Source: a virus
Taxonomy: Duplodnaviria; Heunggongvirae; Uroviricota; Caudoviricetes
DNA length: 64,000 nt
Direction: 5' to 3' (one strand)
IMG/VR virus record: IMGVR_UViG_3300035034_002381
Coordinates: 1 to 64,000 of that record
Position numbers and translations under genes: made by a program. The notes under the pieces were generated by a model. The model was given only the letters and a program-made list of their open reading frames with translations, made no database searches and was not told the DNA's origin. Shown in pieces: positions 25,807 through 49,403 of the stretch. Position 1 is the stretch's first letter, and the number at the start of each line of letters is the position of its first letter.

Positions 25807-26081
25807 TGAAAAAGGCAAGAACATTTACAGAATTTAATGAGTCTATATCAAACGAAGAAGAACTAAATGAAGCAGTCGATGTATTTATCGCAATTGCTGA
25901 AGCTTTAGACGTAAGTTTAGATGTCGCAAAAATGATAGTAGCTTTGGCAGGAGTCACCGGAACAGTAACTTTCGCAGCAGCAATGACAAAAATCCAAGAT
26001 GTATTGGCAAAGAAAAATCCTAAATTATCTAAGAAATTAGGTGATATTACAAAAGGAGCAAATAACGCGAGAACACAATAG
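25806..26081 (+). CDS. Small hypothetical protein
   Basis: N-terminus MKKARTFTEFNE (MK..F.EF family-like). Confidence 0.35.
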   Translation: MKKARTFTEFNESISNEEELNEAVDVFIAIAEALDVSLDVAKMIVALAGVTGTVTFAAAMTKIQDVLAKKNPKLSKKLGDITKGANNARTQ

Positions 26082-26085
26082 AAAT

Positions 26086-26505
26086 ATGGATGATATTAGC
26101 AATGGAGGTGGAATTCTCCAAAAAACAAAGATACTTACAGTAACAAATAAGATTGGTTATGCCAAGAATTCTGAGGGTGTGACTTCTGTATTTGCTAATA
26201 CTGATATTGGAGCAGGCGATCTTATCGAGGTTGCGACCCTTCTAGAAGTTTCAGATATGGTGATGACAAATAGAGAAATTGCTGATCATGTTTTTACAGT
26301 AAATCCAGAAAGTAAACAATATGCGATCGGTTTAGGATTTGCTTGTTTATATCAACATAACGATAAACCTAACGCCGAGTGGAATATACCTAGCGATAAA
26401 AAGGAAATCAGATTTACTGCTAAAGACGACATAAAAAAATCTGAAGAAATCACAATTTCATACGGAAAGAATTATTTCCTAAGTAGAGAAAAGAAAGAGG
26501 AATAA
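26086..26505 (+). CDS. SET-domain protein (putative protein lysine methyltransferase)
   Basis: GFACLYQHNDKPNAEWN matches the RFINHSCxPN motif, and EEITISYGKNYF matches ELTFDYG. Compact at about 140 aa, like viral vSET. The start was moved to the ATG at 26086 to avoid overlap with the upstream ORF. Confidence 0.6.
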   Translation: MDDISNGGGILQKTKILTVTNKIGYAKNSEGVTSVFANTDIGAGDLIEVATLLEVSDMVMTNREIADHVFTVNPESKQYAIGLGFACLYQHNDKPNAEWNIPSDKKEIRFTAKDDIKKSEEITISYGKNYFLSREKKEE

Positions 26506-26562: not shown

Positions 26563-26973
26563 ATGAAAGCCTTTACTTATGTTATAGATATTGATGACAC
26601 TATCAATATTACCGATAGAGATGAAAATAATATAGGACTGTATTCTCAGTCTCGGCCGATACTTAAAGTTATCAATAAAATTCGAAGACTTAAAAAAGAA
26701 GGCCACAAAATCATACTTTTTACTGCTAGAGGTATGCGTACATTTAATAATGATGTCAAAAAAATCGAAGATTTTCATAGAGAAACACTCGTTAAATGGT
26801 TAAATGACCATGAAGTCCCTTATGACGAACTACAGTTCGGTAAACCATGGGGCCCCCATGTAATATATGTCGATGATCGTGCTGTTACTATTAACCAATT
26901 TGTTTTGGGTGGTCCCGAAAATCACAGAAGTTATACACACATTAACAAAACAGTTATAAATGATGAATTATAA
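26563..26973 (+). CDS. HAD-superfamily phosphatase
   Basis: Motif I VIDIDDTI (DxDxT), motif II ILFTARG, motif IV GKPWGPHVIYVDDRA. Confidence 0.6.
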   Translation: MKAFTYVIDIDDTINITDRDENNIGLYSQSRPILKVINKIRRLKKEGHKIILFTARGMRTFNNDVKKIEDFHRETLVKWLNDHEVPYDELQFGKPWGPHVIYVDDRAVTINQFVLGGPENHRSYTHINKTVINDEL

Positions 26974-28949: not shown

Positions 28950-29134
28950 TTTTTAAAGTAAGAGTAGAAGAAAAGAGCATAGAAGATGTTATAGAACTTA
29001 TTGAAACAGGAGAAGGGAAAAAAGGTCTCCAATTTGATCTATATAATGAAAAACCATATTTTTCACATGTAGAAATTTTCGTTAATACTGATGATTTCTA
29101 CACATTAAAGGATTATTTAAATGAACAAACCTAA
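28946..29134 (+). CDS. Small hypothetical protein
   Basis: 62-aa ORF. Confidence 0.3.
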   Translation: MIFKVRVEEKSIEDVIELIETGEGKKGLQFDLYNEKPYFSHVEIFVNTDDFYTLKDYLNEQT

Positions 29135-31064: not shown

Positions 31065-32362
31065 TGTACATTATAAAAAACAATAAACTTGAATCTACTG
31101 ATAATATCGATTTATTTTTTAATGAGATAAATGTTGGACAACATATTGCTAAATATGGATATTTCGAAAGTGACCTTATTAATTGGTTAAAGCTTACATA
31201 TAAAAATAATGATAAAATCTTTTTAGATTTAGGAGCGCACATAGGTTCATATTCAATAGAATTAGCAGAAAATTTTCATTCAGTTCATTCATTTGAACCT
31301 AATCCAACAGTCTATAATCATTTATGTGCTAATGTTGCATTAAAGAGATTATCAAATAGGGTATTTCCACACAGAGTTGCATTATCGGATAATAAATCTA
31401 AACAGCCATATTATGAGAGATCCAAAGATGGTGGAGGTAATGGAATTGAAGTTGTAAGAGAGAACGATAAGCACTCATTCTTTGTAGAATCTAAATGTTT
31501 AGATGATTATTCTTTCGATAAAGAAATCGGTTTGATTAAAATTGATATCGAAGGTCATGAGTATAAAGCTATTTTGGGTGCATATGAAACTTTGAAAAAC
31601 TCATATTTCCCACCTATAATTTTCGAATCTTGGGCGCAAAATACACACCCAGAATATTCACAAGAAATACTTTTAGAAATTCGTGATAAAACATTTGATG
31701 TATTAAAGGATTATGGATACACTGTTAAATCCATAAGTGGATATAATGAAATGTTTATTGCTGTTCAAGAGCGTGAAAAATCTCAAGAAGATATTATTGT
31801 TGAAGGTCTTTTGACAGATAAGTTAGACGTATGGCTTAACTCACCTGGAGGGACTCGAAGCAATTATATAGCCGATGTTCTAGAAAAAAGTAATTTAAGA
31901 GTGAGAAACGAATCCTGGTATAAGTATGGTTGTCATTGGACTTCTCCTTTATTTGAAAGGGAATTTAAAACTACAAGATTGTTTTGCTACACTAGCGATA
32001 TCGGACTCGCATTGACAAGTCAGTTAAATGCCAATACTATTGATAAACTGAATTTTGCAGATTTTTATAATGAACCATGGGATTTATATCGATGGATACA
32101 AAATATTAAAAAACAAGTGATTAACTGGTCGGATCCTGGCGTATTCTTTTTAAATACCGACTATTTAAATGATAAAGATATTCAGTCTGAATTTAAAACT
32201 CTTACTGGAGATAGTTTAGACATATCAGATTTCAGACTTGACCGTAAATCTAAAAAATTACATCCTGCATTAATACAATACATGGATGAGATTAATGAGA
32301 TTAATGAGTTATTAGCAAAATTACCTAATGCCGGTTTTGGCGGAGAAGTTGATGAAGGTTAA
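31064..32362 (+). CDS. FkbM-family methyltransferase with a C-terminal extension
   Basis: FLDLGAHIGSYSIELAE matches the FkbM D-x-G-A-x-x-G motif. Confidence 0.55.
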   Translation: MYIIKNNKLESTDNIDLFFNEINVGQHIAKYGYFESDLINWLKLTYKNNDKIFLDLGAHIGSYSIELAENFHSVHSFEPNPTVYNHLCANVALKRLSNRVFPHRVALSDNKSKQPYYERSKDGGGNGIEVVRENDKHSFFVESKCLDDYSFDKEIGLIKIDIEGHEYKAILGAYETLKNSYFPPIIFESWAQNTHPEYSQEILLEIRDKTFDVLKDYGYTVKSISGYNEMFIAVQEREKSQEDIIVEGLLTDKLDVWLNSPGGTRSNYIADVLEKSNLRVRNESWYKYGCHWTSPLFEREFKTTRLFCYTSDIGLALTSQLNANTIDKLNFADFYNEPWDLYRWIQNIKKQVINWSDPGVFFLNTDYLNDKDIQSEFKTLTGDSLDISDFRLDRKSKKLHPALIQYMDEINEINELLAKLPNAGFGGEVDEG

Positions 32363-32816: not shown

Positions 32817-33455
32817 ATGAACATATTTGTTCTTGACGAAAATGTCAAAAAATGTGCCGAATATCATTGTGATAAACATGTTGTCAAAATGATTACTGAG
32901 CATAATCAAATTTTGGGTTCGATTTCTTATTTACGTAGAGGTATTTCTAAAAAATCGGAAATAACTGATGAATTTATTCAACAACATTTCCAAAATTTTC
33001 CTAGAAAAAAATTAGCAATTGATATGGATTCATTACCCATTGCTGATCATTCGCCACTTATCAAAAAATTATGGAATTTTGTAAAACCCGCAGAATTGTC
33101 TTGGCCGTACGGTATTGGTTATAAAAATCATCCATGTACACAATGGGCTAATGCGTCTAAAGAAAATTATGATTGGCTATGCTCACTCAATCTTGAATTG
33201 TGTAAAGAATATACTAAACGATATAATCGTCGACATGCTGGTGAGGATATTACTCAATGGTATATTGAAAACGCACCATATCTACCGAATTCTGGCATGA
33301 CTCCATTTGTTTTAGCTATGCCTGATGATTGTAAATCTGATGATCCAGTTGAATCTTATCGAATTTACTACATTTATCATAAATATAAATTTGCCAAATG
33401 GAAAACAAAAGTTCCAAATTGGTATATAAACGTTATAAAACATCAAGAAATATGA
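32817..33455 (+). CDS. Hypothetical protein
   Basis: 212-aa ORF with a conserved-looking N-terminus MNIFVLDENVKKCAEYHCDKHVVKM; no family assigned. Confidence 0.4.
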   Translation: MNIFVLDENVKKCAEYHCDKHVVKMITEHNQILGSISYLRRGISKKSEITDEFIQQHFQNFPRKKLAIDMDSLPIADHSPLIKKLWNFVKPAELSWPYGIGYKNHPCTQWANASKENYDWLCSLNLELCKEYTKRYNRRHAGEDITQWYIENAPYLPNSGMTPFVLAMPDDCKSDDPVESYRIYYIYHKYKFAKWKTKVPNWYINVIKHQEI

Positions 33456-34009
33456 CAATCAAACACAGAATAACTGATTCTGAAAATACCCATGTTATGC
33501 TCGACATAGAAACTTTGGGTACTGGTGCTAATGCAATCATTTTACAGATTGCAATGGTCAAATTTGGTCTTAACGATCAAAATGGTGAAACAATGAAAAC
33601 TATAGTTAATGTTTTTCCTTGTATCAAAGAACAACATGATGAAGGTAGAACAATGACTTTCGATACAGTTAACTGGTGGCTTGGTCCAGATCATGTGAGC
33701 ATATTAGCAAATCTGCGGAAACAGGAAACATCCAATTTGGTAGATGTTAGATCTCAAATAGCTAAGCACATGGAAGAATTTAGGAAATCGGGAGTTCATC
33801 TGTGGGCAAGGTCACCCAAATTTGACATCAAGATTTTAGAAGATTTTTTAGGAACAGATGTGCCAGAACATTCCCGAAGGCACCAAAGAGATGTTAGAGA
33901 ATATGAATTTATTTCGGGCGATCGCCCAGGTGCATCCCATGATGCAGAAGATGATTGTATTCAACAAATTATATTAGTCACTAATGTTATTCAAAGACTT
34001 TTTATATGA
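33452..34009 (+). CDS. DnaQ-like (DEDDh) 3'-5' exonuclease
   Basis: Exo I motif MLDIETLG, Exo III motif HDAEDD; ATGA start/stop overlap with the upstream gene. Confidence 0.6.
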   Translation: MTIKHRITDSENTHVMLDIETLGTGANAIILQIAMVKFGLNDQNGETMKTIVNVFPCIKEQHDEGRTMTFDTVNWWLGPDHVSILANLRKQETSNLVDVRSQIAKHMEEFRKSGVHLWARSPKFDIKILEDFLGTDVPEHSRRHQRDVREYEFISGDRPGASHDAEDDCIQQIILVTNVIQRLFI

Positions 34010-34122
34010 TAACCTCGATAGTAGAAATTATTAAAGAATCTCTAATTGGTAAATCAGTTATAGTTGCCGAGTATTACCCGGATAACAATGAGGGAAATTA
34101 CAAATTCTAAAATAAAGTTAAC

Positions 34123-35022
34123 ATGATATCAGAAGAAAAATTTCCCGATGGACAAATTAATTTTAAAGCAAATACAGAGGACATCAAAAGTCTTTTAACA
34201 CCACCATACATTTTATCAAATGATAATGCGATAAATTTTACAATTGATCTAAGTAACTGGGATAAATTTCAAACTTTGTTGGCAGCCAATGCAAAATTTA
34301 GACAAACGCACAAACAAATTAATTTACATATAGGTTATCTTTTTGGTTCAAGAAGTGACCGTAAATTTGAACATGACGGAATTAACTATTTTCGTGATGT
34401 AATTGCTAAAACAATCAATGATCAAAATTTCAACAAAGTTACTGTATTTGATCCACACTCACTTGCAGTAGAAAATGCAATTAATAATTGTGAGAGTATT
34501 CATCCGTTCCCACAAATCAATCACCATTTTTTAAATATGGTTGGAAATTTAGATTTATCTGAATATGAAATTGTTATAGCGTCTCCAGACCTTGGGGCAT
34601 ACAAAAAAGTCTTTGGAATTTTTGCTAAATTTTCCGAAAAATATCCAAACATACATTTTAATTTTATTTCCGCAAATAAAATTCGTAGTCTGTCTGGTGA
34701 TATTTCTATGGTTTTAAATCCACCATATAAAGAATTTGACAAATCAAAAAAACGAATTCTATATTTAATTGATGATATTTGTGATGGCGGGAGGACCTTT
34801 ATAGAATTTGCTAAACTTCTTAACGAAGATTTTGAGAAAAAGTATCTATATGTATCACATGGAATATTTTCTAAAGGTCTTGATCCATTATTAGAACATT
34901 TCGATAAAATTTTTACTACAAACAGTATTTCGAATACTTATATCAAATATCTAACAAACGATAATACCATTCTAAATTCTAACATTCTTTTTACCACATT
35001 TATTTCGCAACGCAATGAATAA
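34123..35022 (+). CDS. Ribose-phosphate pyrophosphokinase (PRPP synthetase)-like enzyme, or alternatively an Adps-type ADP-ribose pyrophosphokinase
   Basis: PRTase-type loop YLIDDICDGGRTF at the position of the Prs DDMIDTGGT, in a 299-aa protein. Confidence 0.55.
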   Translation: MISEEKFPDGQINFKANTEDIKSLLTPPYILSNDNAINFTIDLSNWDKFQTLLAANAKFRQTHKQINLHIGYLFGSRSDRKFEHDGINYFRDVIAKTINDQNFNKVTVFDPHSLAVENAINNCESIHPFPQINHHFLNMVGNLDLSEYEIVIASPDLGAYKKVFGIFAKFSEKYPNIHFNFISANKIRSLSGDISMVLNPPYKEFDKSKKRILYLIDDICDGGRTFIEFAKLLNEDFEKKYLYVSHGIFSKGLDPLLEHFDKIFTTNSISNTYIKYLTNDNTILNSNILFTTFISQRNE

Positions 35023-35989
35023 AAAAGCAACAATTCTTCTTGGACTGCCATTAGCAGGCAAGTCGACTTATATAGGAAACAGAATAGAATATGGTGATTG
35101 GTCAGACACAGGATTAGTTTTAGTATCTGCAGATGATCTTAAAGAAAATCATGAAGATTATGATCCCGACCATGCGTATAAAATTCATGAGTGGTCAGTT
35201 AAAGAGGCCGAAAGGCAAATGAAAGAATACTCAGAATTTGGATCAAAACACATTATCATGGACGGTGGTGGCATTAACAATTCATATACTCGTAGAATTA
35301 TGTCTGATCTACGTTTAAAAGGTTATGAAATTGAACTTATACATATTAAAACGCCGCTCCAAGTTTGTCTTCTTAGAAATGAGAAGCGGGTCCGCAAAGT
35401 TCCAGTGCATGATATTGTAACAAAGGCAGCTCGAGAACGTAAACAATATGAGATACTTAAAGATGTTGTAGATAGTGTTACTATAGTTCCATATTTCACA
35501 AACAAACATATTTTTATAGATATGGATGGAGTTATTGCGGGACAGTCTGTCTTGCCAGAATTTGAAGGAAAAATAGATTTTGTTAATAGCGAAATTTTTA
35601 CTATTTTACCACCTGTTCATCAAGTTATTGATAAACTTAATAGTCTTGATTCTGAAAAACATACACTTTATATTTTATCAGCAACACCGAATTCATATTC
35701 GTATACTGAAAAACATGATTGGTTAGATAAACATTTTAACATACCAAGAGAACGCAGATTTTTTGTAAATGCTGGAAAGCATAAAGCAGAAATGTTAGAA
35801 AATCTAAGAATAAAACTCAAAACTGATAAACGTGATGTCACTCTGATTGAAGATACGCACTCGACACTTAAAGATGTTAGAGACCTTAGAATGAATCCAA
35901 TACATGTATCTGAATTTTTATCAAATGATTTTTTGCGAGATGAAGAATTATATGACTATAAATATTACGAAAACCCAAATAATAAATAA
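35015..35989 (+). CDS. Two-domain P-loop kinase plus HAD phosphatase (T4 Pnkp-like polynucleotide 5'-kinase/3'-phosphatase architecture)
   Basis: Walker A GLPLAGKST at the N-terminus; DxDG motif IFIDMDGVIAG at about residue 168, as in T4 Pnkp. Confidence 0.5.
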   Translation: MNKKATILLGLPLAGKSTYIGNRIEYGDWSDTGLVLVSADDLKENHEDYDPDHAYKIHEWSVKEAERQMKEYSEFGSKHIIMDGGGINNSYTRRIMSDLRLKGYEIELIHIKTPLQVCLLRNEKRVRKVPVHDIVTKAARERKQYEILKDVVDSVTIVPYFTNKHIFIDMDGVIAGQSVLPEFEGKIDFVNSEIFTILPPVHQVIDKLNSLDSEKHTLYILSATPNSYSYTEKHDWLDKHFNIPRERRFFVNAGKHKAEMLENLRIKLKTDKRDVTLIEDTHSTLKDVRDLRMNPIHVSEFLSNDFLRDEELYDYKYYENPNNK

Positions 35990-35995
35990 AAAGAT

Positions 35996-37714
35996 ATGAG
36001 AAAAATGAACGCTTTCTTAGCAACCGATGGTTATAAAACAGGCCATCACATAATGTATCCTGAAGGAACTATTGAGGTATATGATAATTTAACACCCCGC
36101 AGTTTTAAATACGCAATCAACAATGTCGAGTATGTTATTGCTGTGGGTCAAAAAATGGCAGTCACAGAAATCAACGATATGTTTAACGAAACATTTTTTA
36201 GACATGAAGATGTTGAAAGACTTGCCTTTCATTTATTTAGACAAGGATTACCTGAACAAAAAGCTAAAGAAACCGCAAGAAATAAAATTAAAGCCGAAGT
36301 ATGTAGTGAAATCAAAAAGGAGTTTTCGTTATATCTAGATATGAAATATGATGTTTCGCATATTGAAAGACTTTGGGATTTAGGATATCTTCCTGTAAAA
36401 ATAAAAGCTTTACCAGAAGGTGTAAAGGTCCCAATAAAGGTTCCTGTACTTACAATTGTAAATACTTTGCCAGATTTTTTCTGGTTACCTAATTTCTTGG
36501 AGACTATTATTTCTAATTTGTTATGGAAACCTATGACATCTGCAACTATTGCGTACGAGTTCAAGAAAACTTTGACTAAATGGGCAATGAAAACTGATAG
36601 CAAAAATGTTTCTATTGTAGAATTTCAGGCACATGATTTTTCAATGCGAGGAATGGATTCTATTTATGCTGCTGCTTCATCAGGTTTAGGTCATGCATCA
36701 TCATTCCTTGGAAGTGATACAATACCAGTAATTCATGCAGCAAGATATTATTATGGTGATCAAGGTCCTATTATACATTCTGTAAATGCTACAGAACACA
36801 GTGTCATGTGTGCTGGAGAAAAAGATAGTGAAATTGAAACATTCAGACGATTATTGCGTCTTTTCCCGACAGGAATCTTATCAGTAGTTTCTGATACTTG
36901 GGATTTATGGAAAGTGATAGTAAAATATCTTCCTGAATTAAAGGACGAAATTCTAAAAAGAGCAGGAAAACTGGTTATTAGACCTGACTCTGGAAATCCT
37001 GTTGATATTATTTGTGGTTTTGATCATAATAGATTTGATACACACGAAGAAGCAGAAAAATATTATAGAACTTATGGAATAAAAGATCCAAAATACTATG
37101 TAAAAAACGAATTCTTTACTGTAATTTCACATTCAGGCAACAATTTTAAATATGCAGATTTAGAAGAGACTCCTGCTGATAAAGGAGTCGTGCAATTATT
37201 ATGGGAAATCTTTGGAGGGCAAATAAATGAAGATGGATTCAAAGTTTTAAATGAACACATTGGCGCAATTTATGGTGATAGTATTAATTTCGAAAGAGCA
37301 AATCAGATTTGTGAGAGACTAGCCAGCAAAGGATTTGCGACTACAAACGTTGTACTTGGAATAGGATCCTTCACATATCAGTATAACACTCGTGATAACC
37401 ATGGATTTGCCGTTAAAGCTACTCATATAACTATTCAACATCCTGATGGAAAAATGGAAGAAAGAGACATATTCAAAGACCCACTAACATCGGTAGGTAC
37501 AAATAAAACTAGTGCTAAAGGATTTATTCAAGTACTTAAAGAAAATGGAGAGTATATTATGAGAGATCAGGTTAGTAGAGAACAAGAAGAAAATTCTTTA
37601 CTTACAATGATTTATTTAGATGGTAAAGTTCTTTCCGAAGACACACTCAAAAGTATTCGTAGAAATGTGAATAACGAATTGGCTGTTGAATTAGGATTAT
37701 ATGAAGTAGCATAA
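35996..37714 (+). CDS. nadV: Nicotinamide phosphoribosyltransferase (NadV / NAMPT) family enzyme
   Basis: N-terminus NAFLATDGYKTGHHIMYPEGT matches the NAMPT-family TDSYK start; 572 aa. Confidence 0.65.
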   Translation: MRKMNAFLATDGYKTGHHIMYPEGTIEVYDNLTPRSFKYAINNVEYVIAVGQKMAVTEINDMFNETFFRHEDVERLAFHLFRQGLPEQKAKETARNKIKAEVCSEIKKEFSLYLDMKYDVSHIERLWDLGYLPVKIKALPEGVKVPIKVPVLTIVNTLPDFFWLPNFLETIISNLLWKPMTSATIAYEFKKTLTKWAMKTDSKNVSIVEFQAHDFSMRGMDSIYAAASSGLGHASSFLGSDTIPVIHAARYYYGDQGPIIHSVNATEHSVMCAGEKDSEIETFRRLLRLFPTGILSVVSDTWDLWKVIVKYLPELKDEILKRAGKLVIRPDSGNPVDIICGFDHNRFDTHEEAEKYYRTYGIKDPKYYVKNEFFTVISHSGNNFKYADLEETPADKGVVQLLWEIFGGQINEDGFKVLNEHIGAIYGDSINFERANQICERLASKGFATTNVVLGIGSFTYQYNTRDNHGFAVKATHITIQHPDGKMEERDIFKDPLTSVGTNKTSAKGFIQVLKENGEYIMRDQVSREQEENSLLTMIYLDGKVLSEDTLKSIRRNVNNELAVELGLYEVA

Positions 37715-37790: not shown

Positions 37791-39107
37791 ATGAAAAGAT
37801 CTGGTATTAAAGTAGCGGTATTTCCCATGGGTTCAATTATCCGATTTAGGAAAGATGGAATCAAAAGATCGTTTGGTCGTTTAGAATATTATAATTTGAT
37901 TTGGGCGTTGGCCAGAAATCCAAGTATTTCGGAAATTTGGCTTTTACAAGTTTCTGATTGGGAACAATTGACTGATGATGAAAAAATTGATTTTGATCCT
38001 AGAAAAGTTATTCGTAACATTTATGCGGAATTTAAAGTAGACAAACCTAATAGTAAAAAACAAGAATCTTACGCTGATCTTTGGAACAAAATTTCTCATC
38101 TTAAGCAACCTGATTTTGCAATTGTATTTTCTACACAAGGTCTTACTAGAATTTCTATACCAAATATTATACCTAAAGTAAAAAATCCTGAAGAAAAAGC
38201 TAAATGTTTAGAAATGACAATACGCTATTGTTCTTCACAAATGTATTATCTAAACAATTCAGAAATTCCATATTTTTTGGTAGTTAATGATGGCAGATTT
38301 TTGTATACTAATACACATACAAAATATCTGGATATGTTTAATTTACCCAAAGAAATCATGGGATTTTACAAAAATGATGATTATATACTTCATCATTATG
38401 ATAAAATGCCGGATGATGGTGGCAAAATGACTACTGATGTTGTTAAGTTATCATACAGTAAAATGATTTGGCTTAATAATATCAGTGAAAAAATCATAGA
38501 CCCTGCCAACATAGAGAAAACTGAAAAGTTTTCTATTGTAGCTATGCAGGCAGCTTATGGTAAAGATAAACATGATCCTAGATATTCTATTCTAAAGGAG
38601 TGGTTTTTAGACGTAGATGGAAATGAAGATGTTTCGATTTATGGTAAATGGGGAGAATCTTATGTTAAAGATTATCAACATTTTAAAGGCTTAAAGCCAC
38701 ATACTGAAATTGATGAAATTTTCAAGAAAACTAGGTACACATTATTGATTCCAACAGAACCTTTATGGGTAACTACGAAAATATGTGAGATGTTGAAATT
38801 GGGTGTTGTCCCGTTTTTGCATCCTAGTTATGATGAAAAAAATCTATCATTTGGAGAGGATTCATTTTTTAGAGTAAAAAATCCGGAAGATTTAAAAAAG
38901 AAGATTTCATTTTTAGAAAAAAATCCAGATAAAAGAATCAAGCTCATACAAAAGGCTCAAGAAAAATATATGGAAGGTGTCACAAACGGAACTTGTGTCG
39001 TCGACGCAATTAATCCATATCTTCAACGGGCTAATATTGATGTAGAATTGCAACATGGATTTAGTGATGAACTAATTCGTAAGCGCAAAGTTAAAAAATT
39101 ATTTTAA
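37791..39107 (+). CDS. Putative GT-B glycosyltransferase with resemblance to phage DNA beta-glucosyltransferase
   Basis: N-terminal KVAVFPMGSIIRF and C-terminal PLWVTTKICEMLKLGVVPFL pattern-match T4 BGT (MKIAIINMGNNVINF ... LRVWETMASDAVMLID) only loosely; recalled from memory. Confidence 0.3.
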   Translation: MKRSGIKVAVFPMGSIIRFRKDGIKRSFGRLEYYNLIWALARNPSISEIWLLQVSDWEQLTDDEKIDFDPRKVIRNIYAEFKVDKPNSKKQESYADLWNKISHLKQPDFAIVFSTQGLTRISIPNIIPKVKNPEEKAKCLEMTIRYCSSQMYYLNNSEIPYFLVVNDGRFLYTNTHTKYLDMFNLPKEIMGFYKNDDYILHHYDKMPDDGGKMTTDVVKLSYSKMIWLNNISEKIIDPANIEKTEKFSIVAMQAAYGKDKHDPRYSILKEWFLDVDGNEDVSIYGKWGESYVKDYQHFKGLKPHTEIDEIFKKTRYTLLIPTEPLWVTTKICEMLKLGVVPFLHPSYDEKNLSFGEDSFFRVKNPEDLKKKISFLEKNPDKRIKLIQKAQEKYMEGVTNGTCVVDAINPYLQRANIDVELQHGFSDELIRKRKVKKLF

Positions 39108-39110: not shown

Positions 39111-40319
39111 ATGAAGAATAAATTTTCTAAGGATGGACATTGGAGATTCGGTACTATAGTTCCATTAATCGGGGGAATGACCATATCCAACCAACAAGCA
39201 ACCGGAGATAATCCGGACTTTTTAATATCTTATCCAGCGTTTGCAGGCAATGATTCTCATTGTGTTAATCATTTTAAAGATACCCCATATTATGTAGTCG
39301 ACCCAGAAACTAATGAATTACCTGAAGACGATACTTTTCAAAATGTAGATTTTGTGTCTGCAGTGTGCCCATGTGCAGGACTTTCTATGTTAAATACTTC
39401 TAAGAAAAGAGGATCTGATGCAGAAATGAATAATTGGATGTATAAATCTGCAGAATTAGTTTTAGAACAAATTAAACCCAAAGTTTTTTGGGGGGAGAAT
39501 GCACCAGGTCTATATACAAAATCTGGTGAAGGTGTAGTCAAAAAATTGAGAGAAATTGCTGAAAAGAATGGTTATGTACTTTCATTAGTCAAAACTAATA
39601 CCTTTTTACATGGTATACCACAACATAGAACTAGAACTTTTTACTTTTTTTGGCAAGGTAAACATGCGCCAATACTGAATTATACCGAGCGGGATGCACC
39701 AACTCTTAAAGAATATCTAGATCAAATTCCTGAAAATGCTTCTATGCAAGATGAAAAATTCGGCTTAGAAAGTATGAATAGTCTTTGGTTTAAATTCTTA
39801 AAAGATCAAAACATAAAAATTTCAGATGTACAAAAAAGTACGTGTAAATCAATTATGGATTATTGTGTAGCCGAAAAATTGATGCCGAAAATGGTTGATT
39901 GGGGTGAAGAAAATGGATATGATAAAATGGTCAGGACTGCTAAGCATATTCTACATAAACAATCTATGGGTAAAGGTTGGTGGGACGCTACACCATTAGT
40001 ACCAACAGATACTATTAATGCGCTGATTAGTAAGAATGCTGGAATTGTCCACCCGAACGGAGAAAGACCAATTAATACCCGAGAAGCTTTATGGTTAATG
40101 GGATTACCACATGATTTTACTATGGTCGATTATGACAATAGAAAAAATAGCAATCACATTTGCCAAAACGTACCGGTAACCACTGCAAAAGACTGGACAT
40201 TCGAAGTGATGAAATTTATCAATAAAGATATTGAAAAAATTGCAACGCCGTTTCTAAAACAAAACAATATCAAACAAAGAATAGATTTACAAGAAAATAA
40301 ATCCAAAGCACTTTTTTAA
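39111..40319 (+). CDS. DNA (cytosine-5)-methyltransferase
   Basis: Motif I PLIGGM, motif IV CPCAGLS (PC...S), motif VI GENAPGL (ENV-type), motif VIII PQHRTRTFYF (QxRxR). Confidence 0.7.
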   Translation: MKNKFSKDGHWRFGTIVPLIGGMTISNQQATGDNPDFLISYPAFAGNDSHCVNHFKDTPYYVVDPETNELPEDDTFQNVDFVSAVCPCAGLSMLNTSKKRGSDAEMNNWMYKSAELVLEQIKPKVFWGENAPGLYTKSGEGVVKKLREIAEKNGYVLSLVKTNTFLHGIPQHRTRTFYFFWQGKHAPILNYTERDAPTLKEYLDQIPENASMQDEKFGLESMNSLWFKFLKDQNIKISDVQKSTCKSIMDYCVAEKLMPKMVDWGEENGYDKMVRTAKHILHKQSMGKGWWDATPLVPTDTINALISKNAGIVHPNGERPINTREALWLMGLPHDFTMVDYDNRKNSNHICQNVPVTTAKDWTFEVMKFINKDIEKIATPFLKQNNIKQRIDLQENKSKALF

Positions 40320-40321: not shown

Positions 40322-41761
40322 ATGAAACCTTTATTTGTAATAGAAGACGAAATACAAAATAAGTCTAATATATTCGAACTAATTAATCCACAAAAATTAG
40401 ATCCGAATAAAAAGACTATATTAATAATCACATACAAAAATTTTGCTGGTGATTTTGACTATATTTATGGATTTAATCACAAGATTATTGAATTATTAAA
40501 AGATCAATATAATATTGTATTTGCTGGAAAGGAAATTAAAAAGAATGTCATCGATATAGATAATTTCTATTTAATTGATATGAAAGGTTATACGAGTTTA
40601 AATCAGAATAGATTTAAGCGCAAAAAAGAAGATCCTAACAGTAACCAAATTAACAGAAATATTTTATGGGAAGAATTTGAATCTGCGTTCGGTGATTTAG
40701 AAATTGATTTAATTTTTTATGCGACACCAGAGTATGCGATTTTACCTCATGGTAAATCTTATCATAAAGATTTCAAAGAAATACAAAACGAAATTCATGA
40801 TTATGTAGGCGCAGATACTAAAAAGATTCAGCGTATTAACGAAATTATGTACGATATCTATGAAAATTATGATACCCATGCATCTATTTTAATGTTTTCT
40901 GCCTGGCATAAAAATGTCATGATGAACTTGCCGGTTTTTCTAAAAGAAAGAAATTCGTTTAAAGTCATTGCATTTTCTATTGATCCTGCAAATACTTATC
41001 GATATTTGGAACACCATGGAATAGAATGTACCAATTTTTATTTTGAAGAAGATAAACGTGGTACTCGCAATTTCGAAAAATTTCCAATAGCACATCTTCA
41101 ACATTTAATTTTTGAAAACAACGAAAATCCTACAGAAAAATATAGTTTAGAAAAAACTACAGATTTTTTCTTTATGGGAACGATTATTCAAGAAAAGGGA
41201 AGTAGAATGCAGATGTGGTATGAATTTTTATCAGATTTAAAATTAGACGATAAATCTAATTTTTGGATCCCAATTAAACATAATGGAATTTACCGAACTA
41301 AAAAACAAGAAACTAGTGGTCATACCAAAAAGGGTTTACAGATTATTGATGAAAAATTCACAGACATTAAAAATGCTATCATAAATCATCCCAATTTTTC
41401 TGGACATTTATTACCATCAGAAGTCAAAAAACATATTGTAGCTTATAAATATTCATTAGTATTGCGATGTGTTTCTATTTATGATAGTCTAAATTTTAGA
41501 CCTATTTATTATGTTTATTTAAACATTCTTCCATTTTTAGATCATATGTATGATCCAGATTATTTACAGATTCCTAAGAAATTTCAAGACAAATTAGCAG
41601 TATCTAATTCACGAGATATCGAGGATAGAATCAAATATTATAATCAAAATCCAAAAGAAAGAATTCAGTTATTAAAAGAAATGAGAGAGTTTTTTGAAAT
41701 AGACGAGTTTTTAGAAGATTGGAAAAACATAACACTAAAACATATAGATCATGCTAAATAA
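40322..41761 (+). CDS. Hypothetical protein
   Basis: 479-aa ORF; no family assigned. Confidence 0.4.
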   Translation: MKPLFVIEDEIQNKSNIFELINPQKLDPNKKTILIITYKNFAGDFDYIYGFNHKIIELLKDQYNIVFAGKEIKKNVIDIDNFYLIDMKGYTSLNQNRFKRKKEDPNSNQINRNILWEEFESAFGDLEIDLIFYATPEYAILPHGKSYHKDFKEIQNEIHDYVGADTKKIQRINEIMYDIYENYDTHASILMFSAWHKNVMMNLPVFLKERNSFKVIAFSIDPANTYRYLEHHGIECTNFYFEEDKRGTRNFEKFPIAHLQHLIFENNENPTEKYSLEKTTDFFFMGTIIQEKGSRMQMWYEFLSDLKLDDKSNFWIPIKHNGIYRTKKQETSGHTKKGLQIIDEKFTDIKNAIINHPNFSGHLLPSEVKKHIVAYKYSLVLRCVSIYDSLNFRPIYYVYLNILPFLDHMYDPDYLQIPKKFQDKLAVSNSRDIEDRIKYYNQNPKERIQLLKEMREFFEIDEFLEDWKNITLKHIDHAK

Positions 41762-42398
41762 GATATTTAAAAGTTTGAGTAATTCTGAAAATGAAGCATT
41801 ATGTGTACAAAGAACTAATCTTTTATTCGAAGCATTAGATATTATAGAAAAACATAATGGGAAAGCTTGGTTAGATTGTGGTACTTTGTTAGGTGCGTAT
41901 AGAGATGGTGAATATATTCCATGGGACGTCGATGTAGATTTAGGAATTAATATCGAGGATGTTACTGAGGAAATGCTAAATGATTTCAGAGATAAATATA
42001 ATATACGACACGATAATGGAAACTTAGATCAATACAAATTTTGCTCATTTTATAAGAGAGATGAAAATGGTGATAATTACAAATTTAGAAGATGTAATTT
42101 ATGGATTGATTTACATATGTACTATCCAAATTATGATGGTACAAGAACTATGACAATTACTACAGGAAAAATTAGAGCACCTAAAAAAATCTTTCCAGCA
42201 CCTGCTGAATGTATCGAGAATTTAGAACAAATTGAATGGCAAGGTAGAAAAGTAAATATTCCTAGTAAAACTGTAAAATATTTAGAACAATGGTATGGAT
42301 ATGATTGGGACGTACCTAACGATAAATGGAAAATGTCTCCGAGTTGGTACGATAATCCAACAAATGACAAAATTATTCAAGGTAAAACCCTCTTTTAA
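41751..42398 (+). CDS. licD: LicD-family phosphotransferase (transfers phosphocholine, ribitol phosphate or similar from a CDP/NDP donor)
   Basis: AWLDCGTLLGAYRDGEYIPWDVDVDLGI matches the LicD DxGTLLG...PWDDDxD motif. Confidence 0.65.
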   Translation: MLNKIFKSLSNSENEALCVQRTNLLFEALDIIEKHNGKAWLDCGTLLGAYRDGEYIPWDVDVDLGINIEDVTEEMLNDFRDKYNIRHDNGNLDQYKFCSFYKRDENGDNYKFRRCNLWIDLHMYYPNYDGTRTMTITTGKIRAPKKIFPAPAECIENLEQIEWQGRKVNIPSKTVKYLEQWYGYDWDVPNDKWKMSPSWYDNPTNDKIIQGKTLF

Positions 42399-42416: not shown

Positions 42417-43178
42417 ATGCATATATTAAATGAATATTTTGACAAGATTTATATTACCAACCTCGACTCGGCCAAAGATAGATATGAAAGATTATCTAAA
42501 GAACTGGATTCATTTGGCGTTGTTTATGAAAGATTCAAAGCATTGACTCCAGATGATGCAAGAAAGGTATTTGCTGAAAAAGGCCTAAAGATTCCTAAAA
42601 GTAATAGTGGAGCTCTTGGTTGCGCAACTTCACATTATATATGCTGTCAACAGGCTGCGAAAAATGGACTTAAAAGAATTTTGATTCTTGAAGATGATGC
42701 AAGAATAACCGATATAGATTTTAATCAAGAGACTCAAAATTTAGTTGAACAAATAAGAAAAACCGACTGGTTTTATCTAAAGCTTGGTTATAATATCACT
42801 AACCAGATGTTAGACGAAAATTTTGAGTTTCATAGAGTTTCAGAAAATTTGTTTAATCTTTCAAAAAGTTCTATGACCACCGCTATAGCTTTCAATATCG
42901 AAAAAATCGTAGAGGATGAGAATGCTTCCACAGTTTTTATTTCTGATCACGCATTAGAAAATAGTAAATTGAATATTCATATTGACCATAGATTGTTTAT
43001 GATGTGTAACGAATTCGGAATTCTACAATGCCATTATTATCCAGCAATATTTACTCAGACTGATGGGTATTCATACATAGGAAAAGAAGAAAGGAAATTC
43101 TCTAATATTGATAAAAGAACAAACAGAATATTCAAAGAGCATATACAATCTTCTAGCTCAACAAAAAAATTATTTTAA
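42417..43178 (+). CDS. Family 25 glycosyltransferase (LPS-biosynthesis-type)
   Basis: N-terminus FDKIYITNLDSAKDRYERL matches the GT25 start (IxVINLxxSxxR). Confidence 0.5.
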   Translation: MHILNEYFDKIYITNLDSAKDRYERLSKELDSFGVVYERFKALTPDDARKVFAEKGLKIPKSNSGALGCATSHYICCQQAAKNGLKRILILEDDARITDIDFNQETQNLVEQIRKTDWFYLKLGYNITNQMLDENFEFHRVSENLFNLSKSSMTTAIAFNIEKIVEDENASTVFISDHALENSKLNIHIDHRLFMMCNEFGILQCHYYPAIFTQTDGYSYIGKEERKFSNIDKRTNRIFKEHIQSSSSTKKLF

Positions 43179-43196: not shown

Positions 43197-43976
43197 ATGG
43201 AATTTTTAAATATACTACAATCGGAATTACAATCGGGATTTATTTACATACCTAATAGAGGCAATGCTGGGGATGTTGTCATTCAACAATCTACTATTAA
43301 ATTTTTTGAAAAAAATAATCTAAACTTCGAATTAGGAAAAAACACTACAACTTATGTTGGGGAAAATCTAGTTTATGGTGGGGGTGGAAATTTGATTGGA
43401 AAATACCAACCGGCTAAAAAATTCATAAAATTAAATGCGGAAAAAAATCATATAATGATATTACCGCATACAATTAAGAACAGCGAAAAGTCTTTAAATA
43501 TGCTGAATAAGGATTCTATTGTTTTTTGCAGAGAAAGAATATCTCATGAATATGTTAGTAAATTTATTGAAAAATGTTATTTACATAAAGATATGGCTTT
43601 TCATCTAGATTTAGAATCTTATAAAAAGGAATCTAAATATGAAGTAGGAAATATATTTAGAATGGATGTCGAATCTTCTAATAACGTTAAAAAAATTCCA
43701 TCTAATAATGTGGATATATCCAGTGTTTTTAATCGTAGAAATCAGCATACAAATTTAGAAGTAGCTCAAGCTGTATTTGATGATTTTGTTAATTATATAG
43801 CAGATTTCGAAATTGTAAACACAGATAGATTACATATTGCAATTATTGCTGCAATATTGGGAAAAAATGTTAATCTTTATCCTAACTCATATTATAAAAA
43901 TAAAGCCGTATATGACTATACATTATCGTTAGAATATCCCAACGTCAATTTTATCGATGAAGTAAAATATAGATGA
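43197..43976 (+). CDS. Polysaccharide pyruvyl transferase-like protein
   Basis: YIPNRGNAGDVVIQQ matches the GNxGDxxI motif of the CsaB/WcaK family. Confidence 0.4.
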   Translation: MEFLNILQSELQSGFIYIPNRGNAGDVVIQQSTIKFFEKNNLNFELGKNTTTYVGENLVYGGGGNLIGKYQPAKKFIKLNAEKNHIMILPHTIKNSEKSLNMLNKDSIVFCRERISHEYVSKFIEKCYLHKDMAFHLDLESYKKESKYEVGNIFRMDVESSNNVKKIPSNNVDISSVFNRRNQHTNLEVAQAVFDDFVNYIADFEIVNTDRLHIAIIAAILGKNVNLYPNSYYKNKAVYDYTLSLEYPNVNFIDEVKYR

Positions 43977-44030: not shown

Positions 44031-44603
44031 ATGAAAACAATTATTATTGAAGGATGTGATAGAGTAGGAAAAGATACAGTTTGTAATGGAATAAAACTGA
44101 CTGCGGACTGTTTACTTTATCGACATTGGCTTAAACCTAAAGGTCAAACTAATGATGAAAGAGTTAATTATCAAAAGACAACATTTAAAAAGGAATTTGA
44201 TTTACGTAAATCTTTTTTGGATGATTGGTATCTTAATGATAATGATAAAAATTCTGATTTAATTCTTTGGAACAGAAGTCATATTGGAGAATATGTTTAT
44301 GGAAAACTATATCGAGACTATGATCCAAATTGGATTTATAATCTGGAAAATCTTTATAATTTTTCTGATAATAACATTTATTTGGTAATGTTATATGCAG
44401 ATCCAGATTTTTTGTGTGAGAATGATGATGGACATTCATTCAGTTCTGATATTGAAGGTAAAACGCAAGAAATCAATTTATTCCACGAAGCAGTGGATAA
44501 AAGTCTAATACCAAATAAAATAAAAATAAAAGTAAATGACGGAAAACGTTACCGAGACAGAAAAGAAATTAGAAAAGAAATTTTTGATCGAATCTTCAAT
44601 TAA
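44031..44603 (+). CDS. P-loop (deoxy)nucleoside monophosphate kinase-like protein
   Basis: Walker A IIIEGCDRVGKDT, comparable to T4 gp1 SGVKRSGKDT and Tmk IEGxxGxGKxT. Confidence 0.5.
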   Translation: MKTIIIEGCDRVGKDTVCNGIKLTADCLLYRHWLKPKGQTNDERVNYQKTTFKKEFDLRKSFLDDWYLNDNDKNSDLILWNRSHIGEYVYGKLYRDYDPNWIYNLENLYNFSDNNIYLVMLYADPDFLCENDDGHSFSSDIEGKTQEINLFHEAVDKSLIPNKIKIKVNDGKRYRDRKEIRKEIFDRIFN

Positions 44604-45468
44604 TCAAAGATTCCAAGAACTTATTGAGCAGATTGAGATATCTGCAGAAATGAATGGTACAGTTAATCCACGAGATTTACTGGTTAAAGAATCACTACTT
44701 ACAGGATTTTCTATTGATCCAAGATATCCATGTATAGATTTCGAAGCAAGAAAATTCAACTATAAATATTTTGCTGCTGAGGTTGCATGGTATTTATTAA
44801 AAGATAATACAACAGAATTTATTTCTAAGTTTTCCAATTTCTGGAATAATATTACAAATCCAGATGGAACTATTAATTCTAATTATGGAAAAATTCTATT
44901 AACACAAATAAACAATACTATCACACCAATAGCATGGGTAGTAAATTCTTTAAGAAAAGATAAAAATTCTAGACAAGCAATTGCATATATTGGAAGTAAG
45001 GATTTTCAATATGAAGGAAATAAAGATTTTGTGTGTACTCAATATATTTTGTTTTTTATTCGAAACGATGAACTTCATATGAAAGTTCAAATGAGATCAA
45101 ACGATATTTTTTATGGATTATCTTATGATGCTCCTTGGTTTTCGTTAGTTCATCAAAATACATTTCTTGAACTAAAAGAATTATATCCAGAATTAAAAAT
45201 TGGAAAGTATTTTCATTTTTCTGATAACTCACATTTTTATCAAAGACATTTTAGTAAAGCTCAAGAAGTCTTACAAGAAGAGGTTAAGCTTGGTCCTAAA
45301 ATTGTTCTTGAGAAACCTTTATGGAGAACTTATGAAAATGGTAATTGCGTTATTACTGAAACGGCTAGTAATTATATAGATTTTTTCAATAAAAATTTAG
45401 GTGATTTATCCGAGTATAAAAACGAACAATTTAAAGAAGTTCTCAAAAAAATCGTAAAAATTAACTAA
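44536..45468 (+). CDS. Thymidylate synthase-family pyrimidine C5-transferase with a cytosine-type specificity residue; putative dCMP hydroxymethylase or methylase
   Basis: CTQYILFF matches the ThyA catalytic CHxxxQFY. QMRSNDIFYGLSYDAPWFSLV matches ThyA [21 protein letters not shown], with Asp at the ThyA Asn177 position. GKYFHFSDNSHFYQRH matches GDFVWTGGDTHLYSNH. The start codon is uncertain. Confidence 0.65.
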   Translation: MTENVTETEKKLEKKFLIESSINQRFQELIEQIEISAEMNGTVNPRDLLVKESLLTGFSIDPRYPCIDFEARKFNYKYFAAEVAWYLLKDNTTEFISKFSNFWNNITNPDGTINSNYGKILLTQINNTITPIAWVVNSLRKDKNSRQAIAYIGSKDFQYEGNKDFVCTQYILFFIRNDELHMKVQMRSNDIFYGLSYDAPWFSLVHQNTFLELKELYPELKIGKYFHFSDNSHFYQRHFSKAQEVLQEEVKLGPKIVLEKPLWRTYENGNCVITETASNYIDFFNKNLGDLSEYKNEQFKEVLKKIVKIN

Positions 45469-48273: not shown

Positions 48274-48876
48274 ATGCAAGGACAATTATACCAATGGCAA
48301 AAAGGTGAATACATTGAACAATATTCTAAAGCTATCGATGTAGAAGAAGAAGGCGAGATGTCATTTCTGATTTTTGAAGATGGTAGAAGAATTAACATCG
48401 AACTTATTGAAGAATTTCTTATACCAGTAAATTCAGAAGACGAAGGTTATATTATCAGAGAAGAAGTTATAGATGATTTAGTAGAAATGAAAGGTAAAGA
48501 CGGTGGGATATATACTGTTCCTGGACCAGATCATGGTAAGCGTCGGATCACGAAAAAACCTAAAACCAAACAAGCCAAACCCATCATCACATCGACACCT
48601 AAACAACAAATTAAAGAGGAACCTAAAAATCTTTATCCTAATGATCCTATAATAGCACTCTTAGAAAAATCAAAAAAGGTCACCAAACCTATTAATATAA
48701 CATTACGTTTAGATATTATTACACAAGGTACATACGATCTGATTATTGACAATTTTGAAGATAGTGAAGAAAGCATTGTTGAATATTTGATTTCTTCTAT
48801 CGATAAAAAGGAATTAGTGGAAAGTATAAAGGTTCAACTTAAAGGTTCGTATTCGAAAACACCAATCACAGTATGA
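48274..48876 (+). CDS. Hypothetical acidic protein
   Basis: Start set to the ATG (MQGQLYQWQ) after the upstream stop; the 48112 start on the track overlaps the previous gene. Confidence 0.4.
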   Translation: MQGQLYQWQKGEYIEQYSKAIDVEEEGEMSFLIFEDGRRINIELIEEFLIPVNSEDEGYIIREEVIDDLVEMKGKDGGIYTVPGPDHGKRRITKKPKTKQAKPIITSTPKQQIKEEPKNLYPNDPIIALLEKSKKVTKPINITLRLDIITQGTYDLIIDNFEDSEESIVEYLISSIDKKELVESIKVQLKGSYSKTPITV

Positions 48877-49403
48877 AAGATAAAAATTTAAAATATGAAT
48901 CGAAGAGATTTAACGTTGTTAAAAAACAGGGTAGAGTTAAAATAGATTATAAAAAAATGACAGTTGGCGTTTTACCATATACTATTAAAGATGGACTCCT
49001 AGACAAAATTGGTATTCTGCATGAATGGAATCCTACAAGACAAGATGATTTTTGTCACACGATAATCACTGGTACTGTAGACCCAGAAGATACTGATTAT
49101 CTTTTTGCGGCAAAAAGAGAATTACTTGAGGAAGGTGGCATTAAAGATACTAATGACGATAATTGGATATTTTTAGGTTCATTTTACGTTTCAAAAGGCA
49201 GTAATGAAATGTGTCACACCTTTGCAGTAGATGTTACAGATCTAGAAATTGGTGAAGCAGTAGGAGATGGTTCTGATGCTGAAGAAAAATCTGAATTTTC
49301 TTTAATGGATTCAGGAAATGCAATTACAATTACTAATGAAAGTTTAGTCTTAGCCTCATTTCTAAGACTGTTTGACTTCTTTTATCAAAAGAATAATGGG
49401 TAA
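48873..49403 (+). CDS. Nudix-like hydrolase
   Basis: LFAAKRELLEEGGI resembles the Nudix box REUxEExGU. Confidence 0.4.
   Translation: MKDKNLKYESKRFNVVKKQGRVKIDYKKMTVGVLPYTIKDGLLDKIGILHEWNPTRQDDFCHTIITGTVDPEDTDYLFAAKRELLEEGGIKDTNDDNWIFLGSFYVSKGSNEMCHTFAVDVTDLEIGEAVGDGSDAEEKSEFSLMDSGNAITITNESLVLASFLRLFDFFYQKNNG

Follow-up and report, generated by a model that had tools for sequence, protein, structure and literature searches.

The window analysed here, positions 1 to 64,000 of the IMG/VR virus record IMGVR_UViG_3300035034_002381 (Caudoviricetes), carries a gene for a homolog of thymidylate synthase (TS; ThyA in E. coli) and, next to it, a gene for a P-loop nucleotide kinase. The ThyA-like protein (44536–45468, + strand, 310 amino acids) is probably a folate-dependent deoxycytidine monophosphate (dCMP) hydroxymethylase of the T4 gp42 type, that is, a 5-hydroxymethyl-dCMP (5hm-dCMP) synthase, and stands, together with a putative modified-nucleotide kinase (44031–44603, + strand, 190 amino acids), at the downstream end of a conserved hypermodification module. 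This reading is based on the TS fold of the protein, its best match to T4 dCMP hydroxymethylase, its signature residues, and the gene context in related phages. Judged by sequence, it appears to be an uncharacterised member of the dCMP hydroxymethylases, and the module seems to mix base chemistry of the T4 type with sugar activation of the RB69 type. The strategy of decorating cytosine with sugars is known already, but this gene family and this combination of genes are uncharacterised.

Identity and fold of the ThyA-like protein

The open reading frame (ORF) 44536–45468 matches the Pfam family Thymidylat_synt (E = 6.3e-18) and the PHROG 'thymidylate synthase' (E = 1.2e-34). Among solved structures, the best match is T4 dCMP hydroxymethylase (1b49, E = 1.4e-14), followed by MilA, the cytidine monophosphate (CMP) hydroxymethylase of Streptomyces, and then by E. 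coli TS. In the HMMER alignment, 'vCtqy' of the query lies over Cys148 of the T4 enzyme and 'glsyDa' over 'gfrnDy', i.e., over Asp179, while a MAFFT alignment with T4 gp42, RB69 gp48, and E. coli ThyA places the query Asp in the Asn177 column (E. coli numbering), free of gaps from Arg166 to 177. The ThyA-family Cys block and the Asp at the Asn177 position, both reported in a preliminary description made from the sequence alone, are therefore borne out by these alignments. In the database, 1041 homologs were found at E ≤ 1e-5, and the signature columns were checked in the best 120 of these, all of which have Cys and Asp in the respective columns (120/120). The observation is correct, far beyond chance. 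In query numbering, the signature residues are E82, S115/Y117, R146, D164, C167, S188, D190, D198, and H233/Y235, which are invariant in a family alignment of 44 sequences, as is N116.

An AlphaFold-type model of the protein (pLDDT 93.4) has MilA and T4 dCMP hydroxymethylase as its closest folds; in Foldseek, MilA is the top match (E = 1e-18, TM-score 0.72 normalised to the query), and the T4 enzyme 1b5d gives a TM-score of 0.81 normalised to the target. The protein is not a canonical TS because it scores only 58.6 bits against the NCBIfam thymidylate-synthase equivalog, far under the cut-off of 327; this score, with Asp at both positions 177 and 143, speaks against an assignment to the canonical TS or dCMP methylase type. 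Its C-terminus is unlike the TS-type motif that ends E. coli ThyA and the ThyA of cyanophage S-TIM54. With T4 gp42 (1b49, 1b5d, 6a9a), in contrast, it shares the TS fold, the catalytic Cys, the counterparts of Asp179, Glu60, Asp145, and Ser94-x-Tyr96, the 'MRSND' motif, and the Thr that follows the Cys in place of His147. The two differ in that the query keeps one of the paired Arg126'/127' ('SRQ' vs. 'SRR' in T4) and in that its neighbour is a thymidylate-kinase-like gene, whereas that of gp42 in T4 is the β-glucosyltransferase (β-GT) gene.

Two starts can be considered for the gene, ATG at 44536 and TTG at 44584, the latter being the database gene call (294 amino acids). With the former, the gene overlaps the kinase gene by 68 nt (44536–44603), and with the latter by 20 nt; translational coupling of the two is possible. 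The ATG at 44536 and its open frame are kept in two relatives, the L003 and L008 contigs, but since the ATG falls within a conserved stretch of the kinase gene (KVN-D/N-G), constraint on the kinase may account for its conservation.

Signature residues and the predicted product

Asp177 alone does not fix the product, as it is common to hydroxymethylases, putative dCMP methylases, MilA, and the flavin-dependent 5-hydroxy-dCMP synthases described in 2025–26. The preliminary description was thus right about the substitution but drew it too narrowly in taking it to define dCMP hydroxymethylases and dCMP methylases. Lee et al. (NAR 2026, PMC13326640) reported that the Asp177 ThyA homologs RB69 gp48, DLP3 gp80, and RL38J1 are flavin-linked 5-hydroxy-dCMP synthases, and proposed three diagnostics in E. 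coli numbering: N177D for the dCMP substrate, L143D/E for a non-methyl product, and D169N for the 5-hydroxy type. For the T4 hydroxymethylase, the signature consists of Asp or Glu three residues before the Cys together with Ser-x-Tyr, and the D145N mutant is without activity (Park et al., PMC6400193). In addition, Ser167 and Arg126' favour deoxyribo substrates, MilA having Ala and Lys at these positions (Zhao et al., PMC5175136).

In the query, 'KDFVC' corresponds to T4 'SDFMC', which places an Asp at −3 from the Cys (T4 D145, E. coli L143); the best homologs have Asp there in 120/120 cases. The stretch 'INSNYG' is the same in T4 and provides the water-holding Ser-x-Tyr pair (T4 Ser94-x-Tyr96). 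Likewise, 'MRSND' is shared with T4, as opposed to 'MRSQN' in RB69 gp48, and Asp169 is kept in the query and in 120/120 best homologs. Catalytic Cys167 and Glu82 match C148 and E60 of T4, both being invariant, and Ser188 and Arg146, the equivalents of E. coli Ser167 and Arg126', are invariant in the family as well; the motifs at the Asp177 position and in the Arg126' region read 'SYD' and 'NSRQ', respectively. All signature positions are invariant in the best 120 of the 1041 homologs. Given that Asp at −3 from the Cys, Ser-x-Tyr, and Asp169 are all retained, a hydroxymethyl product is favoured over a methyl or a hydroxyl one, and the retention of Asp169 argues against a flavin-dependent 5-hydroxy-dCMP synthase: the D169N signature of the RB69 gp48 type is absent.

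The relationship to MilA (5b6d, 5jp9) deserves a word of its own. MilA is the best structural neighbour of the query and has Asp at the 177-equivalent and an acidic residue at 143, but it carries Ala176 and Lys133', associated with a preference for ribo-CMP, where the query has Ser and Arg. Since the equivalents of Ser167 and Arg126' are present, the query is unlikely to be MilA-like, and a deoxyribose substrate is favoured; a CMP hydroxymethylase of the MilA/BcmA type was accordingly ruled out by Ser188 and Arg146 in place of Ala and Lys.

The adjacent nucleotide kinase

The P-loop kinase gene, which the preliminary description had placed immediately upstream, is indeed found there as ORF 44031–44603, with the P-loop EGCDRVGKDT and a thymidylate-kinase fold. 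At the sequence level, it matches thymidylate kinases weakly (Pfam E = 0.008, under the cut-off; PHROG 761, E = 1.5e-8), and a sequence search against the PDB gave no match. Its AlphaFold model (pLDDT 93.9) has YorR (2axp/3kb2) and thymidylate kinases as best PDB neighbours in Foldseek, and 4s35 is matched as well; for DLP3 gp78, the fold matches given in PMC13326640 are likewise 3kb2 and 4s35. T4 gp1 (1dek/1del) is not among the 50 best Foldseek PDB matches. By hhalign, the kinase is related to RB69 gp45 (95% probability, E = 4e-8), the 'nucleotide kinase' of the arabinosylation cluster, whose fold matches are likewise thymidylate kinases (PMC13326640). The kinase is a member of the thymidylate-kinase-like family of RB69 gp45. 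A DNA hydroxymethyl kinase, resembling the 5-hydroxymethyluracil (5-HMU) DNA kinase, was dropped as the leading reading on the closed thymidylate-kinase fold and the homology to RB69 gp45.

The kinase family has 48 database members, and in every context examined, its gene adjoins or sits a few genes from that of an Asp177 ThyA homolog. These contexts are the window, L003, L008 and ERZ1426828 (317-kb and 243-kb contigs, respectively), LR756500 (an uncultured 462-kb phage), the Ralstonia phage RsoM2USA, and the Pseudoalteromonas phage XG4. As far as sequence and context go, phosphorylation of 5hm-dCMP is the most economical, and most likely, role for the enzyme.

A conserved module in related phages

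The gene set of the window recurs in L008 and ERZ1426828, both of them jumbo-phage contigs, with kinases that share ~47% identity with that of the query. In both, the order is HAD, a 520-amino-acid NTP-transferase, a 470-amino-acid protein, a 463-amino-acid Glyco_trans_1_2 protein, GT25, C5 DNA methylase, variable transferases, kinase, and ThyA-like, and homologs of every one of these components are present in the window. In L003, the ThyA-like protein is 71% identical to the query.

XG4 (vB_Psh_XG4, PP712099), a cultured but unannotated 158-kb isolate, has a block composed of the kinase, a gp42 homolog, HAD, the NTP-transferase/kinase, a GT-B glycosyltransferase, a C5-methyltransferase, and a T4 gp56-like dCTPase. 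The module spans the ends of the record (L012 1–7549 and L013 17646–18122). It is like that of the window in its kinase, Asp177 ThyA homolog, HAD, nucleotidyltransferase/kinase, GT-B, and a C5-methyltransferase of the same clade, and unlike it in three respects: the ThyA homolog is a true member of the T4 gp42 clade (it shares 50% identity with T4 gp42 and 31% with the query), the gp56-like dCTPase gene follows that for the methyltransferase, and the gene order is permuted. The closest cultured relative of the ThyA-like gene is gp10 of RsoM2USA (38% identity), which lies near a kinase homolog and a homolog of T4 β-GT (E = 3.6e-38); a homolog of nicotinamide phosphoribosyltransferase (NAMPT) is also near it.

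The 262-kb contig L006 encodes both a canonical TS, with Asn177 and the TS tail, and an Asp177 enzyme of the query type, a situation comparable to td and gene 42 in T4. The two genes (L006 5924–6838 and 10001–10864, respectively) are ~3 kb apart, beside genes for ClpB-like and ClpP proteins. In a further relative (L004 10001–11572), the ThyA-like protein shares 55% identity with the query, and two genes downstream of its gene comes one of the dCMP-deaminase family, with a dUTPase_2 (gp56-family) gene ~10 kb away; no kinase homolog was detected at this locus. At survey level, clusters of this kind are known, since a survey preprint has catalogued thousands of viral contigs in which a GT-A or GT-B glycosyltransferase gene lies beside a thymidylate-synthase homolog, frequently accompanied by methyltransferases, APH-type phosphotransferases, and additional sugar enzymes.

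Predicted sugar-activation and transferase genes of the window

All module genes of the window lie on the + strand. The two genes predicted to activate the sugar come first. The HAD phosphatase (26563–26973; Pfam HAD_PNKP) is a homolog of RB69 gp51, a sugar-bisphosphate phosphatase of the AfhF type, with 29% identity to RB69 gp51 (E = 1.3e-7) and 49% to the XG4 module gene. It is followed by a sugar nucleotidyltransferase with a C-terminal kinase-type half (26960–28660; Pfam NTP_transferase, E = 6.2e-17, residues 5–233), an AfhE-type protein predicted to make a nucleoside diphosphate (NDP)-sugar, the N-terminal half of which matches RB69 gp53 (E = 5e-6) and the C-terminal half RB69 gp52 (E = 4.6e-9), the kinase part of gp53/gp52; it is 46% identical to the L008 module gene. 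RB69 gp51 and gp52:53 are the counterparts of AfhF and AfhE, which make UDP-arabinose for DNA arabinosylation (PMC13326640). Next come a GT2 glycosyltransferase with TPR repeats (29121–31064; Pfam Glycos_transf_2, E = 3.7e-11), possibly a member of an extended module, which is 39% identical to the product of an L008 GT2 gene ~3 kb downstream of the ThyA-like gene, and an FkbM-family methyltransferase (31064–32362; Pfam Methyltransf_21, E = 1.3e-15) that may O-methylate a sugar; the L008 module also holds a Methyltransf_21 member.

A block of repair and NAD-salvage genes (32817–37714) then splits the module. Its NAD-salvage set (34123–37714) includes a PRPP-synthetase-like protein, a zeta/AAA_33 plus NT5C protein, and a nicotinamide phosphoribosyltransferase. 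Beyond it, a GT-B-type glycosyltransferase (37791–39107; 438 amino acids; Pfam Glyco_trans_1_2, E = 2.7e-6) is a candidate DNA glycosyltransferase, sharing 44% identity with the L008 module gene and 27% with that of XG4. This is the gene that had been described as BGT-like, a label that holds weakly: hhalign, run with tiny alignments, relates the protein weakly to T4 β-GT (68% probability), but BLAST of the GT-B-type proteins against T4 β-GT and RB69 gp46:47 found no match, nor did hhalign against gp47:46. A second, divergent GT-B-like protein (40322–41761; 479 amino acids) has a weak Glyco_trans_1_2 match and is 35% identical to the 470-amino-acid L008 module gene; by hhalign, the C-terminal parts of the 479- and 438-amino-acid families are related (96% probability over ~110 columns).

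The other transferases expected in the cluster were also found. They are a LicD-family phosphotransferase (41751–42398; Pfam LicD, E = 9.8e-17; NCBIfam cholinephosphotransferase Mf1, E = 4.3e-20, below its cut-off), a GT25-family (GT-A) glycosyltransferase (42417–43178; Pfam Glyco_transf_25, E = 1.9e-17), and a protein of the polysaccharide pyruvyl-transferase family (43197–43976; Pfam PS_pyruv_trans, E = 3.6e-13), of which the first and the last may tailor a glycan. The GT25 protein, which has counterparts in the L008 and ERZ1426828 modules, gives a weak match to TET-associated glycosyltransferases (E = 8.4e-4; 19.8 bits, under the 27.5 cut-off).

Compared with the clusters of RB69, DLP3, and HY126 (PMC13326640), the layout is similar, with an Asp177 ThyA homolog by a kinase, GT-B-type transferases, HAD (gp51), and a nucleotidyltransferase/kinase (gp52:53), and homology is detectable for the kinase, HAD, and both halves of the nucleotidyltransferase/kinase. 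In contrast to those clusters, the ThyA homolog of the window keeps Asp169, the window has no arabinose-5-phosphate isomerase, genes for GT25, GT2, LicD, pyruvyl-transferase, and FkbM proteins are added, and there is a conserved C5-methyltransferase, for which PMC13326640 mentions no counterpart in those clusters.

The C5-methyltransferase homolog

The upstream C5-cytosine methyltransferase of the preliminary description corresponds to 39111–40319 (+ strand; Pfam DNA_methylase, E = 8.5e-24), a conserved module member with an atypical motif I. Its homologs lie within the module in L003 (270–1565), L008 (5979–7190), the ERZ1426828 contig, and XG4 (L012 5432–6568). The clade comprises 2597 homologs at E ≤ 1e-10 and keeps motifs IV, VI, VIII, and X as PCAGLS, GENAPGL, QHRTRTF, and QNVP, with PCA in place of PCQ. 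Relative to the M.HhaI reference sequence, motif I, the AdoMet-binding loop, does not read F-x-G-x-G; the clade consensus is V-P-L-I-G-G, with Leu for the first Gly in at least 90%. By phmmer against the PDB, the protein aligns over residues 73–183 only, which covers motifs IV–VIII.

In S-TIM5-type cyanophages and Bacillus phage G, related methyltransferases likewise occur together with Asp177 ThyA homologs and thymidylate-kinase-like proteins. Members of the clade turn up next to such homologs and thymidylate-kinase-like kinases in several phage lineages that are not related to one another, with a dCTPase too in the case of XG4. A neighbouring ThyA-like gene is not always present: in L014, the methyltransferase is accompanied by a dCTPase homolog, but there is no ThyA within 21 kb. 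In S-TIM54, a 'ThyA' (L010 9111–9953, − strand) lies two genes from a C5-methyltransferase of the same clade (L010 11983–13200); it has Asp at the Asn177 position, Cys at L143, and a TS-like C-terminal tail, a pattern that points to a dCMP methylase and away from both a TS and a hydroxymethylase. A search of the literature on DNA modification in S-TIM5 found nothing relevant.

Predicted pathway and alternative explanations

With a dCMP hydroxymethylase of the T4 type, the pathway would run as follows, the catalytic steps being modelled on the structure and mutants of the T4 enzyme. Cys167 would attack C6 of dCMP, Asp198 would read and protonate the N3/N4 edge of the cytosine, methylene-tetrahydrofolate would be added at C5, and a water activated by Asp164 would add to the exocyclic methylene, yielding 5hm-dCMP instead of the methyl product. 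The thymidylate-kinase-fold enzyme would then convert 5hm-dCMP into the diphosphate and a host NDP kinase the diphosphate into the triphosphate, from which the phage polymerase would incorporate the 5hm base into DNA during replication. Meanwhile, HAD and the nucleotidyltransferase/kinase would make a phage-specific NDP-sugar, and the two GT-B-type enzymes, GT25, and possibly GT2 would transfer sugars onto the hydroxymethyl group of the DNA. The glycan could be extended or tailored further by the GT25, GT2, LicD, pyruvyl-transferase, and FkbM enzymes. What is observed in this scheme is homology, signature residues, and gene order, and from these we infer the chemistry, the substrate of the kinase, DNA as the recipient of the sugar, which sugar it is, and how far cytosine is replaced. 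Replacement of cytosine by a C5-modified form, probably a glycosylated one, is the best-supported reading and agrees with the first proposal in its general sense; as to complete replacement, it is unproven because no dCTPase is encoded in the 64-kb partial contig.

A number of observations speak against this pathway. The ThyA-like protein is just 27% identical to T4 gp42 and has a confidently folded C-terminal extension of ~60 residues that is missing in T4 and may bear on solvent access; the Foldseek alignment to the 318-residue MilA takes in most of it (275–305 of 310 columns). The product rules for positions 143, 169, and 177 are empirical and come from few characterised enzymes. In RB69, the modified-dNMP kinase shown to be active is of the gp1 type, not the gp45 type (PMC13326640). 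No significant match was found in any six-frame ORF of the window for a gp56-like dCTPase, the search suggested at the outset (with a small hidden Markov model of T4 gp56 and its counterparts in XG4 and L014), or for a dCMP deaminase; gp56-like proteins are encoded by related phages, and the genome is incomplete, with replication genes outside the window. Pfam scans of the scanned + strand ORFs of at least 90 amino acids revealed no TET/JBP dioxygenase, dihydrofolate reductase, or second ThyA/ThyX either. A tblastn search with RB69 gp55, the arabinose-5-phosphate isomerase, gave no match in the window (E ≤ 1) or in L008 and XG4 (E ≤ 1e-3); the sugar may therefore be one other than arabinose, or host KdsD could stand in for the isomerase. 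The glycosyltransferases could serve another acceptor. Finally, total replacement of cytosine does not sit easily with a conserved C5-methyltransferase. There is a small chance that this protein, instead of being an ordinary AdoMet-dependent cytosine methylase, uses covalent attack on C6 of C5-substituted cytosine (5-hydroxymethylcytosine or its derivatives) in DNA, and that the module (kinase, NDP-sugar, four glycosyltransferases, and LicD/pyruvyl/methyl tailoring) would build an undescribed cytosine hypermodification in the form of a tailored oligosaccharide.

Of the other explanations, the one that departs least from a dCMP hydroxymethylase accepts that 5-hydroxymethyl-dCTP is made but has the glycosyltransferase and sugar genes act on the envelope of the host, on the virion, or on a small molecule, leaving the DNA plain or with simply modified hydroxymethylcytosine. 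Around 65% of the viral glycosyltransferase-containing contigs in the survey preprint have no base-modification neighbour, synthesis of cell-surface polysaccharides is where LicD, pyruvyl-transferase, FkbM, and GT2-TPR proteins are typically found, and the NAD-salvage/repair block interrupts the cluster. We nevertheless regard it as unlikely: HAD, the nucleotidyltransferase/kinase, GT-B, GT25, the methyltransferase, the kinase, and the ThyA-like gene stay together in distant phages whose kinases are 31–47% identical, the sugar-activation pair is homologous to the DNA-arabinosylation genes of RB69, whose HY126 counterparts are characterised biochemically, and RsoM2USA pairs a member of the ThyA-like clade with a β-GT homolog. 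Slightly less probable still is a flavin-dependent 5-hydroxy-dCMP synthase like RB69 gp48 or DLP3 gp80, with sugars ether-linked to 5-hydroxycytosine as in arabinosylating phages. Such an enzyme would fit the cluster layout, which resembles RB69 and DLP3 in combining the ThyA homolog with a thymidylate-kinase-like kinase, GT-B, HAD, and nucleotidyltransferase/kinase; RB69 gp48 likewise has Asp177 and an acidic residue at 143, and MilA is the top fold match reported for gp48 and gp80 too. However, D169N is absent, with 'MRSND' in the query and its 120 best homologs, and the query is nearer to T4 gp42 (E = 2e-15) than to RB69 gp48 (E = 9e-6). Moreover, the sugar-activation module is not tied to the 5-hydroxy type, since XG4 combines it with a gp42 homolog that is half identical to the T4 enzyme.

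The case of a dCMP methylase that produces 5-methyl-dCMP, like that of Xanthomonas phage XP-12, is the least convincing and in our view very improbable. It would give DNA with 5-methylcytosine, possibly supplemented by the C5-methyltransferase, and in its favour are the occurrence of Asp177 in cytosine-specific enzymes in general, the membership of the C5-methyltransferase in the module, and the S-TIM5-like cyanophages, which pair this methyltransferase clade with a methylase-looking Asp177 ThyA. Yet position 143 is occupied by Asp, not by a bulky hydrophobic residue, which along with Ser-x-Tyr is a signature of water addition; the C-terminus is unlike the TS tail, which closes off the site for hydride transfer and which the S-TIM54 ThyA possesses; and 5-methylcytosine would offer no hydroxyl to the co-encoded glycosyltransferases.

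Setting of the module in the window

The window, which covers nearly the whole of a 64,373-nt metagenomic contig, comes from a low-GC tailed phage (~31% GC) with T4-like head genes, among them those for a prohead protease (17120–19195) and a Gp23-type capsid protein (19214–21007), and its + strand carries every substantial ORF. It has no close sequenced relative at the DNA level, as 20 kb of it, compared by megablast with 50,697 phage records, gave no match. There are 21 tRNA genes in three groups (229–1094, 3901–4355, and 9277–10979), including three for tRNA-Met, duplicates for Tyr, Ile, Val, Ser, Thr, and Arg, and three for tRNA-Leu that differ in anticodon. Directly after the major capsid gene lies that for a 561-amino-acid protein (21117–22802) with weak REase_MTES_1575 and DUF7487 matches, which may be a mobile nuclease; in ERZ1426828 (243 kb), the gene directly before that of the kinase also encodes a DUF7487 protein. 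Just 5' of the HAD phosphatase gene is that for a SET-domain protein (26041–26505; Pfam E = 5e-11), an unusual domain for a phage, and a Nudix hydrolase (48873–49403) is encoded downstream of the cluster.

Implications

The ThyA-like protein belongs to a large, purely metagenomic clade of predicted dCMP hydroxymethylases, whose 1041 homologs share at most 42% identity with any phage of the searched collection, and which travels with phage-encoded sugar-activation genes and several glycosyltransferases. Modified cytosines allow phages to escape from restriction enzymes and CRISPR nucleases, and the enzymes that make them are tools for epigenome sequencing; XG4, being cultured and endowed with the same module, is a ready experimental model. 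If the proposed reading is true, phages that are mostly metagenomic, jumbo phages included, would make glycosylated hydroxymethylcytosine with sugars other than the glucose of T4, and RB69-type sugar-activation genes would serve hydroxymethylcytosine as well as 5-hydroxycytosine, widening the known range of DNA glycosylation.

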